Positions 50,902-64,000 of a DNA stretch of 64,000 nt are shown one piece after another. The translations under genes and the position numbers were made by a program. The notes beneath the pieces are model-generated. The model did not search any database. It saw nothing but the letters and a program-made list of their open reading frames with translations, and was not told where the DNA came from. This DNA comes from a virus. Positions within the stretch are counted from its first letter, which is position 1. Each line of letters starts with the position of its first letter. The stretch lies in the UHGV virus genome UHGV-0038492. The stretch is one strand, 5' to 3'.

Positions 50902-51888
50902 ATGGTATATCGTAAAACGATAGAAAGAACCTCTTCTGATTTAACCGTAGGACGCTTAACCCGTAGAGATATTCGCAATCCTCAGCTTCAGGCATGTTTA
51001 ACGGGGCCTAACGGTGCGGTGATTCGAGAAGCACTGTGTAATACCGAGCTGAATACGTTCTCTTTACAAAAAGGAAAAACAATCCAAGGGTTTATCATCA
51101 CAAAACACATTTACGGCGACCCAACGTTACACTGCTTGTATATGCACGAAATTGTACCTGGGTGTTTGAACAAACTGAGCCTTCTATTGGTACTTGACTA
51201 TACGGGTTTTACGTACCTTAACCGAATTGCCAGAGGTGTGGAAGAAATCGCCGAGCTTAACGATTTAGGGTTTAGACATACCCACACAGCATATCGTTTA
51301 GGTACACGTAAGTTACTGGATGTCACTTTACCGACGAACGTGAAGAACGTCTCCGACGACTTCTATAAAGACTTAACCGGAGCACAACGTGAACAGCTTA
51401 TGATGTTGCTTGGCACTAGCGTCGTTGAAAACATCAATGCTGACCCTGTAACGCGTTCTCGACAAATAATGCCACAAGTTGAAACATTGGTGGAATTAGT
51501 GCGGCACGTCAATCACTACACTTACGTTTGGATGGACGGTAATGACGTTGTGGGTGTGGTGCAAGTTAAATCACGCAATCTTAGCGAGTGCGAACTAAAA
51601 GCCATTGCGGTAAGTGAAACACACCGGGGCCGTGGGATTGGGCGTGCGTTGTTGTACCGTGCTTTACAGATTGCATCGACAACAGCGGCACCATTAGAAA
51701 TAGGGTGTTACAATAACAACCCAGCATTTAGACACCTGGCCGTAGATTTGTTTAAATTCCGTCCCTACGAGTACGAATTTGTTTTAGTGCGCGACGACGA
51801 TGTCGTCAGTTGGGAGCGTCGGAAAAACCGCGTCGAGTTAGTGTTAGGCGACGAAATGTCATCGTTACAAGGCGGAATTAATGCATAA
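50902..51888 (+). CDS. GNAT-domain protein (328 aa; acetyltransferase fold in C-terminal half)
   Basis: RBS aaggag before ATG; C-terminal half carries VGVVQV...IAVSETHRGRGIGRALLYRA motif; N-terminal half unassigned. Confidence 0.55.
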   Translation: MVYRKTIERTSSDLTVGRLTRRDIRNPQLQACLTGPNGAVIREALCNTELNTFSLQKGKTIQGFIITKHIYGDPTLHCLYMHEIVPGCLNKLSLLLVLDYTGFTYLNRIARGVEEIAELNDLGFRHTHTAYRLGTRKLLDVTLPTNVKNVSDDFYKDLTGAQREQLMMLLGTSVVENINADPVTRSRQIMPQVETLVELVRHVNHYTYVWMDGNDVVGVVQVKSRNLSECELKAIAVSETHRGRGIGRALLYRALQIASTTAAPLEIGCYNNNPAFRHLAVDLFKFRPYEYEFVLVRDDDVVSWERRKNRVELVLGDEMSSLQGGINA

Positions 51889-52696
51889 ACCAATTATAAA
51901 GTGGATGGGTGGCAAATCGCGGATTATCGACACCTTACTACAAGTCTTACCTGAACGTACCACTTTCGTTGAACCGTTTGTTGGCGCAGGGTCAGTGTTT
52001 TTGAACACACGTTATAAACGTTACATTCTTGCTGACTCTAACCCTGACTTAATCCAGTTGCTGAATGTAGCGAAAGACCAACCTGAAGAACTTATCTTGA
52101 AGTCGAAACCGCTATTCGAAGACGGTAACGATTGTATTAAGTATATGGAGAGACGAGAACTGTTTAATCGCGAAACGGATATGGCTCCGTTAGACCGGGC
52201 AGCAATGTTTCTGTACTTAATGCGTCACGGTTTTAACGGGATGTGTCGTTACAACGGCAGCGGGGGTTTTAACGTTCCGTTTGGTCGCTATCCTAACGGT
52301 GTGTATTACCCGTTAGAAGAGATTCGTGGTTGGGCTAAACGTTGTCAAGAACCGGAATACTTAGAAATTGTTTGTGAAGATTTCCGAACAGTTTTAGAGC
52401 GTACGCCGGAAGACAGTGTGATTTACGCAGACCCACCGTATATACCGCTCTCAGAGACCGCTAAACACGCGCAATACCATCGGAAGGAGTTTTCCCAGGC
52501 CGACCATCGGGAACTCGCCAGAGCGCTGTTTAAGCAGGTTGAGAAGGGGAATAGCGTTGTGTTGTCCAATGCGGATACGTTACTAACGCGTGAGATTTAT
52601 TACGGGTTCGAATGGCGTTCTGTGGAAGTTGGCCGATACATGGGTGCGTCAGGTGCTGCTCGTAAAACGGTAACGGAATTGTTAGGAGTGCTCTAA
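51881..52696 (+). CDS. dam: DNA adenine methyltransferase (Dam-like, N6-adenine)
   Basis: WMGGKSR, VEPFVGAGSVFLNT, YILADSNPDLI and catalytic DPPY motifs in Dam order; closely parallels E. coli Dam. Confidence 0.93.
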   Translation: MHKPIIKWMGGKSRIIDTLLQVLPERTTFVEPFVGAGSVFLNTRYKRYILADSNPDLIQLLNVAKDQPEELILKSKPLFEDGNDCIKYMERRELFNRETDMAPLDRAAMFLYLMRHGFNGMCRYNGSGGFNVPFGRYPNGVYYPLEEIRGWAKRCQEPEYLEIVCEDFRTVLERTPEDSVIYADPPYIPLSETAKHAQYHRKEFSQADHRELARALFKQVEKGNSVVLSNADTLLTREIYYGFEWRSVEVGRYMGASGAARKTVTELLGVL

Positions 52697-59166: not shown

Positions 59167-59360
59167 AAATTTGGTTGCCGATTGTAGTTTTTATCGTTAT
59201 TGCAGGGGCTTTAGCGAATGCCGAGTACGACTCTCGTACTTTAGAAACGAAACGTGAATTGTACCAGGACTGTATAAAGGATTATACACCGGGCACAGAA
59301 CTTCATGCGCAAGCTGTAAAAAGCTGTGCGCTGATGGCTGAATCGCAGACTCGTTCCTAA
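59163..59360 (+). CDS. small secreted protein with signal peptide (65 aa)
   Basis: Strong RBS ggaggagg; N-terminus MKIWLPIVVFIVIAGALANA (AxA cleavage-like), then LYQDCI...SCALM; related to previous ORF. Confidence 0.5.
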   Translation: MKIWLPIVVFIVIAGALANAEYDSRTLETKRELYQDCIKDYTPGTELHAQAVKSCALMAESQTRS

Positions 59361-59734
59361 TGCGTATCTGGACGCTACAACTCGCTAAGTGGCGGTTAGC
59401 TAAGCAGAAAGGATTTCACGCAGTGGATATCACTGTGAAGTCAGGGCGGAAGGAACTCGCCCCCGACTGGGATTTCCTAATGGCGTATAAAAACTCTGCC
59501 CAAGACGCCGCCGCTGAGCGTGAATACACGATAAAGTATTTGTACAAGCTCGAACGACTGTTAGATGCCGATGCCGAAACGTTGGTCTCGTTGCTTAGAC
59601 ACGAAGATTTGGTTTTGATGTGTTATTGTCCCGCAGGTAAGTTTTGTCATCGTCACCTACTGGCGAGCAAACTTCAAGAAGTAGGAATGATGTTCGGTAT
59701 CGATGTTGAGTTGTGTGGCGAATTAACCGAATGA
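59360..59734 (+). CDS. DUF488-like protein (124 aa), putative
   Basis: C-terminal LVLMCYCPAGKFCHRHLLA resembles the Cys-x-Cys...CHR signature I associate with DUF488; coupled TAATG start. Confidence 0.45.
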   Translation: MRIWTLQLAKWRLAKQKGFHAVDITVKSGRKELAPDWDFLMAYKNSAQDAAAEREYTIKYLYKLERLLDADAETLVSLLRHEDLVLMCYCPAGKFCHRHLLASKLQEVGMMFGIDVELCGELTE

Positions 59735-59796: not shown

Positions 59797-59842
59797 CTCC
59801 TACCGCCCGATTCTATGGGCGGTAGGTGTTTTATTTTTTTTT
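59797..59842 (+). terminator. Rho-independent terminator
   Basis: Stem cctaccgccc / gggcggtagg with loop gattctat, then tgttttattttttttt. Confidence 0.8.
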
Positions 59843-59859
59843 CGATCTTGGAGGGTTAA

Positions 59860-60423
59860 GTGGCCACATCTTACGTACCTGATTTGAGTCTGACCTCAGC
59901 AGAGCTAGTGGTCGCTTTAATCAATCATGATAACGGGTTACAGCTTACACTAAACGAAATCCGTATTAGCGGAACTGTAACAAACCCATCCCCAACAACT
60001 TCGCGACGTAACACTATCACCGAAATCAGTAAAATCAGAAAACCAGATGGTGCGTCTGTTGTGGTTTACTACGACAGACTTGACGCCGATGAGGTATTAA
60101 CGTCCGAACCTATTTTGATTTCGTTAGACGGTACCGAAGCGAACATTCGTGATGTGCTTAGTGTTGTAAATGAATACTGCGGTACGAATTTACAACCTGA
60201 GGACTTACGTGCCTCAGATATTACTTCAGGTAATGATCCTATTGCTATTAACGTTGCTGACGATTCTCCTGCCTGGATGAATGCGTTTATGGTGACGTTG
60301 TTTGATAAAACCGAACGTGCGTTAGCGAACGAAGAAGATGAAATCTTCTGCATCGGTGACGATAGCGTTCTTACATTCGAGGTTACAGATGGCGACAGCA
60401 CTGAAGAAGACGAGACTCCATGA
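59860..60423 (+). CDS. hypothetical protein (187 aa), acidic C-terminus
   Basis: RBS ggaggg before ATG 59860. Confidence 0.55.
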   Translation: MATSYVPDLSLTSAELVVALINHDNGLQLTLNEIRISGTVTNPSPTTSRRNTITEISKIRKPDGASVVVYYDRLDADEVLTSEPILISLDGTEANIRDVLSVVNEYCGTNLQPEDLRASDITSGNDPIAINVADDSPAWMNAFMVTLFDKTERALANEEDEIFCIGDDSVLTFEVTDGDSTEEDETP

Positions 60424-60850
60424 GCTCGAAAGCTACGCAGGCACACCCCAAGGCGGGGTACTGCTGTATAGCAAAGACAATAAAGAATATAAAATTGATG
60501 TTGATAAGTTAGCCCCGGTTGCGACAGTCACCACGGTTAACGGTTCGAATAATGCCGCCACGTTGGATTTCAATACCAGCACTGACATTATTCTGGTGTT
60601 AAACGATCCTAACACTACAGTGACGTTCGCAGCCCTTACCAACGTTGCAGAAAATACCCGTTTCGAAGTAATGCTAACGATTAAGCAAGGAACAGGGGCG
60701 AATAAAGTAACCTGGCCTGAAAACGTTAAATGGCCTCACGGTGCACAACCGGTTTTATCCTACGCGGCAAATGCGGAAGACACTCTGTCGCTTTATACCC
60801 TTGATGGGGGTGCCACCTGGAAAGGTTCTCTTCTTGCAGCGGGTTACTAA
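60389..60850 (+). CDS. hypothetical protein (153 aa)
   Basis: ATG 60389 with RBS gagg 6 nt upstream (track start 60338 rejected); stop abuts next start. Confidence 0.5.
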   Translation: MATALKKTRLHELESYAGTPQGGVLLYSKDNKEYKIDVDKLAPVATVTTVNGSNNAATLDFNTSTDIILVLNDPNTTVTFAALTNVAENTRFEVMLTIKQGTGANKVTWPENVKWPHGAQPVLSYAANAEDTLSLYTLDGGATWKGSLLAAGY

Positions 60851-63800
60851 ATGAGAAAACATTTTCAGCGTCACGCGATTAGCTACGCGTTATCGTTAGC
60901 TTACGGACACCAATCCTTCGTTACCCGGAATACGGGAACGACTCACGACGCGCACAACGAACACTATATTCAAAACGAAGAAGGTGTTCTGTCGAATAAC
61001 CGTCATTTCATTGCTGACACTATGGCGGAATACCAACCGAACGGGGATGCGACGACCGAGGGTCAGTCGTTACACGTTATTGGTTACTGCCACATGTATA
61101 TCGCGACGAAAGACGAAAGATGGTTAGATGCGGCGAAACGTGCCTGGGATGCGTACAACACGTACTTCTACGTCGGACAACCTATTCCGACCACACCCCA
61201 GCGTCGTATTTGTAACTGGTTGGTAAACGGGAAAGAACCGGTATTAGCACATTATCCAATACATCCTACAGAACCTACCCAAGGTGGGTATAAAAGCGTT
61301 CCTGTAAGGTTTACAAACGGACAGTGTAAAATACCGCATGGTGCACCGTTCTGGGGAGAGTATTTGGATACCTTTACGTTTGCGCATCGTGGTCACCCTG
61401 CCTGGGAAGCCATTAACGCAGACGTACAGATTATCAAGGAAGACAAAGAAGGGTCAATTAATTGGGAAGATGTTTTAACTCACGTTATTACCAATCCTGA
61501 TAAACCCTACGAGGCCAAAGCGTGGGTTGATTGGCCTACGTTATTAAACAACGCTACAGGGTACACCCCGCTTTGGGGTGGGAGCGCAACAAAAGCCCCT
61601 AAACACGACGTTGACTGGATAATTGCCTGGACAGGTAACAAAATCCAGGACAGTGAGATTATTGAAACAGGATTAGCAGATGCTGATAAAGGTACCGTAC
61701 AGTTAAAAGACACGCAGTTAAACGGTGTCTATTTGATTAACTACGCGGTAAAACTGCCTGTCGAACACGGTGGTTACGAGTTTAAACGTAACGAACCGTG
61801 GCACAACCGTCCAGTTCACACGCCGTTCTTAGGATCGAAAAACCAATACGGTAACGCCGCTGATGCTGAACTGTGGTTTATTGACGCCTGTTATTTGCTG
61901 TGGCGAATCACGGGTGAAGAGAAATACAAACAAGCATTAGACTGTACTTTCTACACAGCACACGAGTACACGTATATTGATGCGGTAGATAAATTCTTCC
62001 GTCGTTCTACCGCTGCGGAAACACCGTTTACGGACGGCATTTCGTACGACTTCAATTACCCGGACACCGTAAGTGCTACATACGGCCGTGATGAGAATGG
62101 GGATATTACCATCCATGTGCCTGAAGCGGCACAACACTTTATGGAGCAGAAAGCGGTTCGATTCAGGATTAACAAAGACTCCAAACTACGTGTCACGTAC
62201 GGCGGGGTTTGTAAGAACGGCGATCCTGTCTACTGTAAAGCAATGGTAAACATTAACCCTGTGAAAGCTGATACCGAGGAAGTAAACTGGTACGGTTTAA
62301 CTTTACCTCGGTCTACGGTAAATACCGTTAAGCAGTACGATGTTGACTTAGGCCAACTTGCCCGTATTAGCACCCCAGAAGGGGAAGATTACCTGATAGC
62401 TGATGACCGTGCGTGTTCGGACTATGGTGGTTGTACGTGGGAAGAACGTTTTGAGGACAGCATTTACGACGGTCGCGCGGGTACCGTTATAGAAGCTGAA
62501 TTTCCTGATGACGGTGCCGGGTTTATTATCGGGTTCTGGTTAACCGCTGAAGAGAAGGTAAAACCGGTTTCTATTGTCTACCGTGCGGACGCAGATTTTA
62601 ACCTGCGTTTAGCTGACAGCGATAAGTGGCGTTGGTGGTGGATGTTACCCAACACAAACAACGAATGGCGTCAGGTAACGTTAAATCCGGATGATGCCAC
62701 ACTTTCCAGTTATCAGCCGGACCACACAGACGACGACCCTAAACCGGCAGCGCCGAATTTCGATAAGGTGGATCAGGTCACGATTCTCCCTGACTCTACG
62801 GTTGACCATGCGCACTTTGCTTACTATTGTGTTAACGATGTTCCACCGCTCTTTAATAAAGACGACGGTTATATTCTCACCTTCCGTATTGGGTTACGCG
62901 GCGGTGGAGAGTTTGATGCGAAGGTCGGCGACTGTACGATCAAAGATTACCGTTTGGATTCGTTAGCGTATTGTCCGGGTACGATACCGTTCTCGAACAA
63001 CTATTCAGAAGGTTCAGAACAGTTAGGTGCTTGGCACGGGATGCCTTATCCGGGTTATCAGTATCCGTTTATGTACACTATCCACAAAGACGACCGGTAT
63101 AAGCTGTGGTTAGATAACCAGATTCAATTCATGTACGATTCGCAGTTGGCTTACCAACGGCAGCTCGGTGAATTAGGGCCTGGTTGTGCAGCTTATATTT
63201 GGAACCGTTGGGACAACTACACCTACGGAGAAGCGGATACCTGGACAACGTTCCATTGGAGCGACGACCATCCGTGGCCAGGGTATCAACCTCGTGCGTT
63301 TCATGCTGCGTGTCGTTGCTGGTACGAACTGAAACTAAGAGGTAAAGAGGTTCCTGAAGCGTTAACAAGCTATATTGAAAACTGGGTGAATTGGCTAGGT
63401 GGGTTTGTGGATCGGTTTAACGGACACACCCCTAACGAGTTTCCTACAGCACCGAATAAACCCGTTTGGGTGGAAGATGACTTCAACGCACATATGTGTG
63501 CGTTGTGGTTAGCAGGCTGTTGTTGGGCATTACTCGCTGGTGCAACGAATCCGAACTACGATAAGGTAGTTAATGCGGCAATTAAGGAGTTAGGTGAAGG
63601 GTTTACGATTACCTCAATTCCGAATAAGCCGATTAACGGGGCGTGGTCTCCAGCCGCTCGAGAGTCTTCCGATAACGGTATGGCTTTTGGGTTCTACAGT
63701 GGGGAAGCGTTCCGTGCGTTAGGTCTCTACGTTACTTACAAAACTTACGGAGCCAACGCTAATATTTATCGTGACTTAGCGATTACTGACCACAGTCAAG

Positions 63801-63856
63801 CGGTTTTAGACGTTACGTTAACGATAGAAGACGATGCATTAAAACCAGAGCAATAA
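60851..63856 (+). CDS. large hypothetical protein (1001 aa), Trp/Tyr-rich, possibly a carbohydrate-active or receptor-binding virion protein
   Basis: Very long ORF directly after the two small genes; aromatic-rich segments (GYCHMYIATKDERWLDAAKRAWDAY) suggest an alpha-helical-toroid sugar-binding fold; weak inference. Confidence 0.6.
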   Translation: MRKHFQRHAISYALSLAYGHQSFVTRNTGTTHDAHNEHYIQNEEGVLSNNRHFIADTMAEYQPNGDATTEGQSLHVIGYCHMYIATKDERWLDAAKRAWDAYNTYFYVGQPIPTTPQRRICNWLVNGKEPVLAHYPIHPTEPTQGGYKSVPVRFTNGQCKIPHGAPFWGEYLDTFTFAHRGHPAWEAINADVQIIKEDKEGSINWEDVLTHVITNPDKPYEAKAWVDWPTLLNNATGYTPLWGGSATKAPKHDVDWIIAWTGNKIQDSEIIETGLADADKGTVQLKDTQLNGVYLINYAVKLPVEHGGYEFKRNEPWHNRPVHTPFLGSKNQYGNAADAELWFIDACYLLWRITGEEKYKQALDCTFYTAHEYTYIDAVDKFFRRSTAAETPFTDGISYDFNYPDTVSATYGRDENGDITIHVPEAAQHFMEQKAVRFRINKDSKLRVTYGGVCKNGDPVYCKAMVNINPVKADTEEVNWYGLTLPRSTVNTVKQYDVDLGQLARISTPEGEDYLIADDRACSDYGGCTWEERFEDSIYDGRAGTVIEAEFPDDGAGFIIGFWLTAEEKVKPVSIVYRADADFNLRLADSDKWRWWWMLPNTNNEWRQVTLNPDDATLSSYQPDHTDDDPKPAAPNFDKVDQVTILPDSTVDHAHFAYYCVNDVPPLFNKDDGYILTFRIGLRGGGEFDAKVGDCTIKDYRLDSLAYCPGTIPFSNNYSEGSEQLGAWHGMPYPGYQYPFMYTIHKDDRYKLWLDNQIQFMYDSQLAYQRQLGELGPGCAAYIWNRWDNYTYGEADTWTTFHWSDDHPWPGYQPRAFHAACRCWYELKLRGKEVPEALTSYIENWVNWLGGFVDRFNGHTPNEFPTAPNKPVWVEDDFNAHMCALWLAGCCWALLAGATNPNYDKVVNAAIKELGEGFTITSIPNKPINGAWSPAARESSDNGMAFGFYSGEAFRALGLYVTYKTYGANANIYRDLAITDHSQAVLDVTLTIEDDALKPEQ

Positions 63857-63936
63857 TAACCCGCTTATAAAAAAAATATTGGGGGGGGGGTAAGCTACTC
63901 CCCCCGATCTTTAGCTCCCGATAGAGAACTTAATAT

Positions 63937-64000
63937 CATGGCAAAAGCGGTAAAGAAAATACGATTACATAATCTTAGACCATATACCGGTGATATCGGT
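63937..64000 (+). CDS. hypothetical protein, N-terminal fragment (runs off window)
   Basis: ATG 63937 opens a frame to the window end (MAKAVKKIRLHNLRPYTGDIG); weak RBS. Confidence 0.3.

Follow-up and report, generated by a model that had tools for sequence, protein, structure and literature searches.

A block of three genes near the end of a 64,000 nucleotide (nt) stretch of the virus genome UHGV-0038492, the whole of which is referred to here as the window, is probably an accessory module, borne on the tail and directed at carbohydrates, of an SPN3US-like chimallivirus. The block runs from 59860 to 63856 and consists of three open reading frames (ORFs), all on the + strand along with their parts described below: gene 1 (59860-60423, 187 aa), gene 2 (60338-60850 as called, 170 aa; 60389-60850 from its likely start, 153 aa) and gene 3 (60851-63856, 1001 aa). 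An original prediction, made from the sequence alone, had described a strong terminator followed by two small genes and a Trp/Tyr-rich protein of 1001 aa and about 110 kDa. All of these were recovered, the large protein having a mass of 113.9 kDa and the terminator a fold with a z-score of -5.55. These are real genes rather than chance ORFs, since homologues of gene 3 are found in 536 phage records and homologues of gene 2 in 523.

By sequence comparison, the window is assigned to an SPN3US/Asesino-like jumbo phage, that is to a chimallivirus, because the same three genes are found in the same order after a DUF488 gene in SPN3US, Asesino, and pEa_SNUABM_29. A megablast search with the block returned Erwinia phage pEa_SNUABM_29 (Seoulvirus) as its sole match, at 72%. 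No further copies of genes 1 to 3 are present within the window, where the sole match is to an N-terminal motif at position 63938. In the reading favoured here, the block would work like an (alpha/alpha)6-type glycoside hydrolase (GH) carried on an adaptor. The barrel of gene 3 probably binds and cleaves a conserved glycan of the host envelope or exopolysaccharide during adsorption, gene 2 would be the adaptor, and gene 1 most likely ties the cassette into a DUF7941 network at the peripheral baseplate.

Gene 3 belongs to the phi92 gp141 / SPN3US gp124 / S144 ORF17 family. Its product contains 3.6% Trp and 6.0% Tyr, compared to 1.4% and 4.2% in the other long ORFs of the window, and it is homologous over its full length to phrog_2871 'tail protein' (residues 6-983, E-value 0, 1455 bits). 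An AlphaFold2 model built from an alignment of 71 homologues is globular, with a predicted local distance difference test (pLDDT) score of 90.8 and a predicted template modelling (pTM) score of 0.88. The model has twelve helices, at residues 2-106, 337-372 and 739-966, which form an (alpha/alpha)6 barrel, and two beta-rich insertions at residues 107-336 and 373-738. The suggestion from sequence of a likeness to alpha-helical-toroid carbohydrate-active enzymes is therefore correct at the level of the fold. A parallel beta-helix catalytic domain, as in the classical trimeric depolymerase tailspikes, is absent from the model. Nor are there the features of a tail fibre, such as fibrous repeats, a coiled coil or a C-terminal chaperone, the protein being globular and having no fibre Pfam domains.

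The first three helices of the barrel (residues 2-106, 60854-61168) include the near-universal E70 and Q72 at the start of the helix spanning residues 69-86. They are followed by the first beta-rich insertion (residues 107-336, 61169-61858), in which relatives have extra insertions at around residues 210-240, and by a second helical hairpin (residues 337-372, 61859-61966) with the conserved sequence NAADAELWF, containing D338, W342 and D345. The second insertion (residues 373-738, 61967-63064) is mostly beta strands, has the conserved D589, matches phrog_23426, and is predicted to consist probably of beta-sandwich or jelly-roll-like domains. In some relatives an RCC1 propeller is inserted at around residue 423, or residues 511-675 are duplicated. 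Y736 and Q737 are at the end of this insertion, just ahead of the remaining barrel helices (residues 739-966, 63065-63748), in which Q765, W784, W809, Y812, R815, H881 and E952 are conserved.

Conservation was scored over the 71 sequences and 87 further homologues, including 64 that are distant (E-values from 1e-200 to about 1e-40). Thirteen residues are nearly always kept: E70, Q72, D338, W342, D589, Y736, Q737, Q765, W784, W809, R815, H881, and E952. Most of these are at or just before the N-terminal ends of the barrel helices in the model topology, and it is at the N-terminal ends of helices that (alpha/alpha)6 enzymes build their active sites. E70, D338 and E952 are candidate catalytic residues on this model, and we infer from it that an active glycosidase is more likely than a dead scaffold.

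Several results weigh against this reading. Sequence comparison did not place gene 3 in any GH family of CAZy or Pfam, the best Pfam match being GH47 with an E-value of 0.5, below the cutoff. There was no match in NCBIfam, and both a phmmer search and a profile search of the PDB returned nothing relevant. A search of 1.84 billion representative proteins with a profile yielded 376 clusters, with none from outside the family among the 150 matches listed. Together, these searches gave no sequence link between gene 3 and a known GH family and did not reach a cellular family. Because only these 376 clusters were found and the tblastn matches were to phages only, the sequence data suggest that the family is essentially phage-restricted. 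The grouping of the conserved carboxylates in one pocket is predicted from the barrel topology, and neither an activity nor a substrate has been reported for any member of the family in the literature searched. In addition, a receptor-specific depolymerase would not usually be as conserved between phages with hosts from different genera as gene 3 is.

Gene 3 might instead be a non-catalytic structural or lectin-like part of the tail, with the barrel acting as a scaffold or glycan-binding site that serves baseplate architecture or reversible binding. The very high conservation across hosts would then be that of a structural protein, the lack of membership in any GH family by sequence would be expected, and the insertion of binding domains such as RCC1 and Big_2 would reflect a scaffold that tolerates them. 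However, even homologues at E-values of about 1e-40 keep three carboxylates at the helix N-termini, together with several aromatic, Arg and His residues, as in a maintained active site, and one distant homologue has a fused GDSL esterase, an enzyme typically found with glycan-processing ones. A non-catalytic role is considered rather doubtful.

The location of the protein in the virion is known from orthologues. Three samples of tailed SPN3US particles gave 79, 72 and 64 spectra for gp124 (113.7 kDa), against 0 spectra in tailless 64_112(am27) particles from the non-permissive host, and gp123 was represented by 5 spectra in one sample (PMC5105663, Table S4). These data are in the supplementary table; gp122 to gp124 are not treated in the main texts of the literature searched. 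The small myovirus S144 has a gene 2 homologue, ORF16, and a protein with 44% identity to gene 3, ORF17, which is annotated as a phi92 gp141 homologue. In S144 virions ORF17 was detected with 25 peptides and ORF16 with 3, and the authors noted for ORF17 a hydrolase signal in HHpred and a predicted structure unlike that of a spike or fibre (PMC7432712). By analogy to SPN3US gp124 and S144 gp17, gene 3 would be a tail-associated virion protein.

The original prediction would have been given up had the protein been absent from virions and had no GH-like or fibre-like fold been predicted. Its 72%-identical orthologue, SPN3US gp124, is present in virions and lost without tails, and structure prediction gives a GH-like barrel. 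The cautious wording of a possible host-recognition or polysaccharide-degrading module is supported by this barrel and by this behaviour of gp124. As caveats, gene 3 is neither a fibre nor a classical beta-helix tailspike, and it probably does not set fine host range.

Of the genes in this region, gene 3 shows the strongest conservation. Its identity to the SPN3US, Asesino and pEa_SNUABM_29 orthologues is 70-77%, while that of genes 1 and 2 is 42-46% and that of the neighbours 26-68%, and identities of 40-60% are retained in phages of Vibrio, Aeromonas, Pseudomonas, and Enterobacter. Being the most conserved gene locally, it is unlikely, on sequence grounds, to be a strain-level determinant of fine host range. 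Given how little it differs between phages infecting Salmonella, Erwinia, Proteus, and E. coli, it probably either addresses a conserved glycan or is structurally constrained, and a serotype-specific capsule or O-antigen is an unlikely target.

It is correspondingly improbable that the module determines host range at the strain level as a classical depolymerase tailspike for one capsule or O-antigen. Such a role would agree with the tail association of the orthologues, with the glycosidase-like fold and with the position of the block beside a long fibre and gp38-like adhesins. Against it stand the 70-77% identity to proteins of Salmonella and Erwinia phages, the identities kept in phages of the four other host genera, and a fold that is not a trimeric beta-helix; the neighbouring fibre with its gp38-like adhesins is also the better candidate for specificity.

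Genes 2 and 3 appear, from their distribution, to be a mobile two-gene cassette that is found across many unrelated phage lineages. Homologues of gene 3 are present in SPN3US-like jumbo phages, phages of Asteriusvirus size (about 350 kb), phi92-like and rV5-like Vequintavirinae, 84-kb Erwinia and Salmonella myoviruses, Rosemountvirus, Loughboroughvirus, and Autographiviridae and other podoviruses, as well as in the Vibrio, Aeromonas, Pseudomonas, and Enterobacter phages. The two genes abut in all four of the loci examined, stop to start in the window and with a 1-nt overlap in UPF_BP2, GAP31, and G1. Natural fusions of gene 2 to gene 3 were found in none of 131 homologues. Longer homologues of gene 3 are fused to or interrupted by other domains, including P2 gpI, lambda J-like Phage-tail_3, Prophage_tail with Gp58, N4-type non-contractile sheath, Big_2, RCC1, and GDSL esterase. 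These fusions fit a tail-borne, glycan-directed module.

Two of the fused proteins, P0082 and P0092, are ENA metagenome proteins with an N-terminal P2 gpI baseplate domain (Tail_P2_I, residues 6-142) joined to the (alpha/alpha)6 protein. This fusion accounts for the label 'tail formation protein GpI' in some phage records. In P0153 and P0178, which are distant homologues, the gp141-type domain is joined either to the TIM-barrel domains of an N4 gp65-type non-contractile sheath or to a GDSL esterase, a hint that the family may work alongside glycan-deacylating modules or recognition modules of the N4-glycan-receptor type.

The distribution of the family, and its fusions, also bear on whether gene 3 could be a virion-associated hydrolase of peptidoglycan or periplasmic glucan, aiding penetration rather than adsorption. 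Its spread across phages of the Gammaproteobacteria points to a conserved substrate and distant homologues are fused to Prophage_tail and J-like tail-tip proteins, as such a role would predict, but Pfam and NCBIfam show no similarity to lysozyme, transglycosylase or amidase families. The homologue in Autographiviridae is at the tail-fibre position by way of an adaptor with a T7 fibre N-domain, and a separate transglycosylase is encoded nearby. The P2 gpI fusion, for its part, puts this type of protein at the baseplate periphery. Of the roles weighed here for gene 3, penetration is very improbable.

The adaptor role in the favoured reading falls to gene 2, a member of the phi92 gp140 family. 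The ATG at 60389 is most likely the start of this gene, because a GAGG precedes it by 6 nt, it coincides with the beginning of the PHROG match, and it is also the choice of an independent gene caller on near-identical contigs; the alternative is the in-frame ATG at 60338, which gives the 170 aa product. From 60389, the first 35 nt of gene 2 are shared with the end of gene 1, and the ATG of gene 3 comes immediately after the TAA stop of gene 2. The protein belongs to phrog_9017 'tail fiber protein' (E-value 5.6e-39), and some SPFM-phage records name its orthologue 'Phi92_gp140'. A disordered N-terminus of 44 residues precedes a beta-sandwich at residues 45-153, which in structure comparison resembles the branching or adaptor domains of tailspikes.

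In an alignment of homologues from five phage lineages, the C-terminal 100 or so residues are kept, with invariant columns (QGTGANKVTWP...PVLSY...DGGxTWxG), whereas the N-terminal parts are entirely different. For example, the N-domain is that of the T7 tail fibre in Vibrio phage G1 (Autographiviridae) and Tail_spike_N (TSP1/gp66) in Cronobacter phage GAP31 (Vequintavirinae). The C-terminal beta-sandwich would thus go with the large protein. The N-terminus would be exchanged to suit the attachment site of each lineage, being a T7 fibre N-domain, a TSP1/gp66 N-domain or, here, a peptide of about 43 residues. We infer from this arrangement a complex between the products of genes 2 and 3. Gene 2 was also considered as a detached C-terminal domain of DUF7941, and this was rejected since hhalign against the full-length Goslar DUF7941 proteins gave a probability of 0.1%.

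The match of gene 2 to Pa223 agrees with the account of gp140 in a 2026 cryo-electron microscopy study of phi92 (PMC13450770). In that study 'fibre II' is unassigned, with gp140 among the candidates, and gp141 is never mentioned. A complex of gp140 and gp141 may be a candidate for this density. A review table lists phi92 gp141 as a 'glycosidase', citing Schwarzer 2012 (PMC5380687).

Gene 1 has a GTG start and encodes an acidic protein (isoelectric point 4.05) with an N-terminal globular DUF7941 module at residues 8-150. It matches Pfam PF25613 (DUF7941) with 74.2 bits against a cutoff of 27 (E-value 1.6e-20, profile positions 3-154 of 276), an annotation that is also precomputed on near-identical contigs, and phrog_2935 'virion structural protein' with an E-value of 3.7e-28. 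The full DUF7941 architecture is an N-terminal domain, a linker and a C-terminal domain, and gene 1 is without the C-terminal domain, ending in an acidic tail of about 35 residues. Within this tail the motif IGDDxVLT[FYI] is kept in the aligned orthologues, which include SPN3US gp122 and Asesino gp139. Homologues were found in 64 records, all of them from jumbo phages.

According to a 2026 preprint on phage Goslar, the DUF7941 proteins are specific to chimalliviruses, and each Goslar virion has hundreds to thousands of copies of gp22 and gp23; gp22 assembles into filaments once purified, and protomers are predicted to associate head to tail, with the linker docking on the next N-terminal domain (bioRxiv 10.64898/2026.04.21.720040). 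According to the same study, phiKZ gp126 and gp127 fit the outer peripheral baseplate density, and three Goslar members (gp86, gp92, and gp161) have glycoside-hydrolase, carbohydrate-binding or leucine-rich repeat (LRR) domains after the DUF7941 module (bioRxiv 10.64898/2026.04.21.720040). A link between gene 1 and the cassette is suggested by the overlap of genes 1 and 2, by these Goslar fusions, and by a second DUF7941 gene, in the near-identical public contig L010, that ends 2 nt before another protein with the N-terminal motif of gene 2.

This motif is the peptide of about 43 residues (MATALKKTRLHELESYAGTPQGGVLLYSKDNKEYKIDVDKL) encoded at 60389-60517, with the consensus MAxxVKKxRLHEL...GVLLxSKDxKEYxLPV, and is a lineage-specific proposed docking peptide. 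A six-sequence alignment shows that it is common, in contig L010, to gene 2, to a 1517-aa fibre and to a 206-aa protein, the last being the one preceded by the second short DUF7941 gene (170 aa). In deposited genomes it is found once per genome in 24 SPN3US/Asesino-like phage records, and in those whose coordinates were compared it is at the gene 2 orthologue. From gene order and the Goslar fusions, and by analogy to the T7-N and Tail_spike_N domains as its counterparts, the motif is proposed to be a lineage-specific attachment peptide that has the short DUF7941 proteins as its partners.

Some observations do not favour such an anchoring. SPN3US gp122, the orthologue of gene 1, encoded at 8994-9527 of L002, had 0 spectra in the mass spectrometry of virions (PMC5105663, Table S4), which either weakens the anchoring role or reflects a low copy number. 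The 1517-aa fibre has the motif but no DUF7941 gene directly upstream. That the motif mimics the DUF7941 linker was not supported either, as a hidden Markov model (HMM) of the six sequences gave only noise on nine DUF7941 proteins and did not match the linker. As a separate observation, the short DUF7941 proteins of Goslar are among its most abundant virion proteins, whereas SPN3US gp122 was undetected though gp124 is abundant.

A more tentative proposal, possible but not favoured, joins these strands. The motif would plug, as a docking peptide, into sockets formed by the short DUF7941 proteins upstream, and the gp141-type proteins would be founders of an unclassified GH family acting on a glycan conserved across the Gammaproteobacteria, as well as a component of phi92 'fibre II'. 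SPN3US-like chimalliviruses would in that case use the peripheral baseplate and its DUF7941 network as a carrier for exchangeable distal modules. Those of this phage would be a glycosidase-like complex, the 1517-aa fibre with its gp38-type adhesins, and a third protein.

The host-recognition locus is larger than the three-gene block, which is only its first part, and extends past the end of the window. The next gene begins at 63938 on the + strand and is cut by the window end at 64000; its first residues (MAKAVKKIRLHNLRPYTGDIG) are shared with gene 2. In near-identical public contigs (L009-L011) this gene encodes a long tail fibre of 1517-1540 aa with Phage_fiber_2 and Peptidase_S74 domains. 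Downstream of it come two gp38-like adhesin genes, the second short DUF7941 gene and the gene for the 206-aa protein (L010, 13548-20462). Between gene 3 and the fibre gene, at 63869-63905 on the + strand, intergenic A8, G10, and C6 tracts can pair into a hairpin, a weak candidate for a terminator. Its reading as a strong terminator was rejected, since with a z-score of -0.52 the hairpin is no more stable than shuffled sequences, and it has no U-tract. The lengths of the tracts vary among near-identical contigs (A8/G10, A6/G10, and A5/G9), which could reflect either genuine variation of the homopolymers ahead of the fibre gene or noise from sequencing or assembly.

On its 5' side the block is isolated by an intrinsic terminator (59799-59848, + strand) that closes the upstream unit. 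Its stem-loop (59799-59826) has 11 pairs, 8 of them G-C, with a T-run after it; its folding energy is -23.3 kcal/mol, none of 200 shuffled sequences being equally stable, and it is kept in near-identical contigs. The sequence then reads GGAGGG at 59850-59855 (+ strand), a ribosome-binding site 4 nt 5' of the GTG of gene 1. Directly 5' of the terminator, at 59360-59734, is a DUF488-family gene (PF22751, DUF488-N3a), the position of which is kept in SPN3US-like phages at 58% identity. Elsewhere in the window (50902-52696), a GNAT acetyltransferase gene (328 aa) adjoins, with an 8-nt overlap, a Dam-type DNA methyltransferase gene (MethyltransfD12, 271 aa) whose product has 67.5% identity to SPN3US.

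The block is an orthologue of known genes that are annotated as 'tail protein' or 'glycosyl hydrolase', and in this respect is largely ordinary. What is added is a confident predicted fold, with candidate catalytic residues, for a family of tail proteins that more than 500 sequenced phages encode. Its unusually strong conservation suggests that the target is a common bacterial surface glycan, which would be relevant to the engineering of phages with a broad host range. The repeated pairing of a short DUF7941 gene with a motif protein could link the DUF7941 filaments of chimalliviruses to receptor-binding and glycan-processing proteins.

The closest known system is gp122-gp123-gp124 of SPN3US (SPN3US_0122-0124), where the three genes match in order and orientation and likewise have the DUF488 gene upstream. 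The identical gene order is found in Asesino gp139-141 and pEa_SNUABM_29 gp28-26. For genes 1, 2 and 3, the identities are 44%, 46% and 72% to SPN3US, the last over 998 aa, and 45%, 45% and 77% to Asesino, whose gp141 is the counterpart of gene 3. Gene 3 has about 72% identity to the gp124 proteins of SPN3US relatives too. The three known phages differ from the phage studied here in what follows the block, having a small unrelated gene in place of the extra fibre, the two gp38-like genes and the second DUF7941 pair.

Beyond the jumbo phages, the same cassette, with a second protein of about 930-1000 aa, is found as phi92 gp140/gp141, S144 ORF16/ORF17, GAP31 gp221/gp222, UPF_BP2 gp47/gp46, and Vibrio phage G1 gp22/gp21. 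The identity of gene 3 to these phi92 gp141-type relatives is 27-46%. In these phages the N-terminus of the small protein is specific to the lineage (T7 fibre N-domain, Tail_spike_N or coiled coil) and there is no DUF7941 gene. The likeness of gene 2 to the N-terminal XD domains of CBA120 TSP4, and to the adaptor of K1-5 and SP6 with its tailspike, is moderate and structural only. The cargo in those systems is a trimeric beta-helix, whereas here it would be an alpha-helical barrel in the proposed complex of genes 2 and 3.

That barrel can be compared with CPF_2247/3REN (clan GH-M-type), GH8, GH105, GH76, and GH88, to which gene 3 has about 10% identity and no relationship at the HMM level. Unlike these enzymes, it is broken by about 600 residues of beta-rich insertions and would be virion-borne. 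Among the Goslar DUF7941 proteins, gp23 (profile positions 4-174) is like gene 1 in having the N-terminal domain and a tail but no C-terminal domain, while gp22, gp31, gp33, and gp34 are full-length and unlike it. In the fused Goslar proteins gp86, gp92, and gp161 the module and the additional domain are in one chain, whereas here DUF7941 and the enzyme-like protein are separate, with the adaptor gene between them. What is shared is the N-terminal module, which in Goslar is likewise associated with glycoside-hydrolase and carbohydrate-binding domains.

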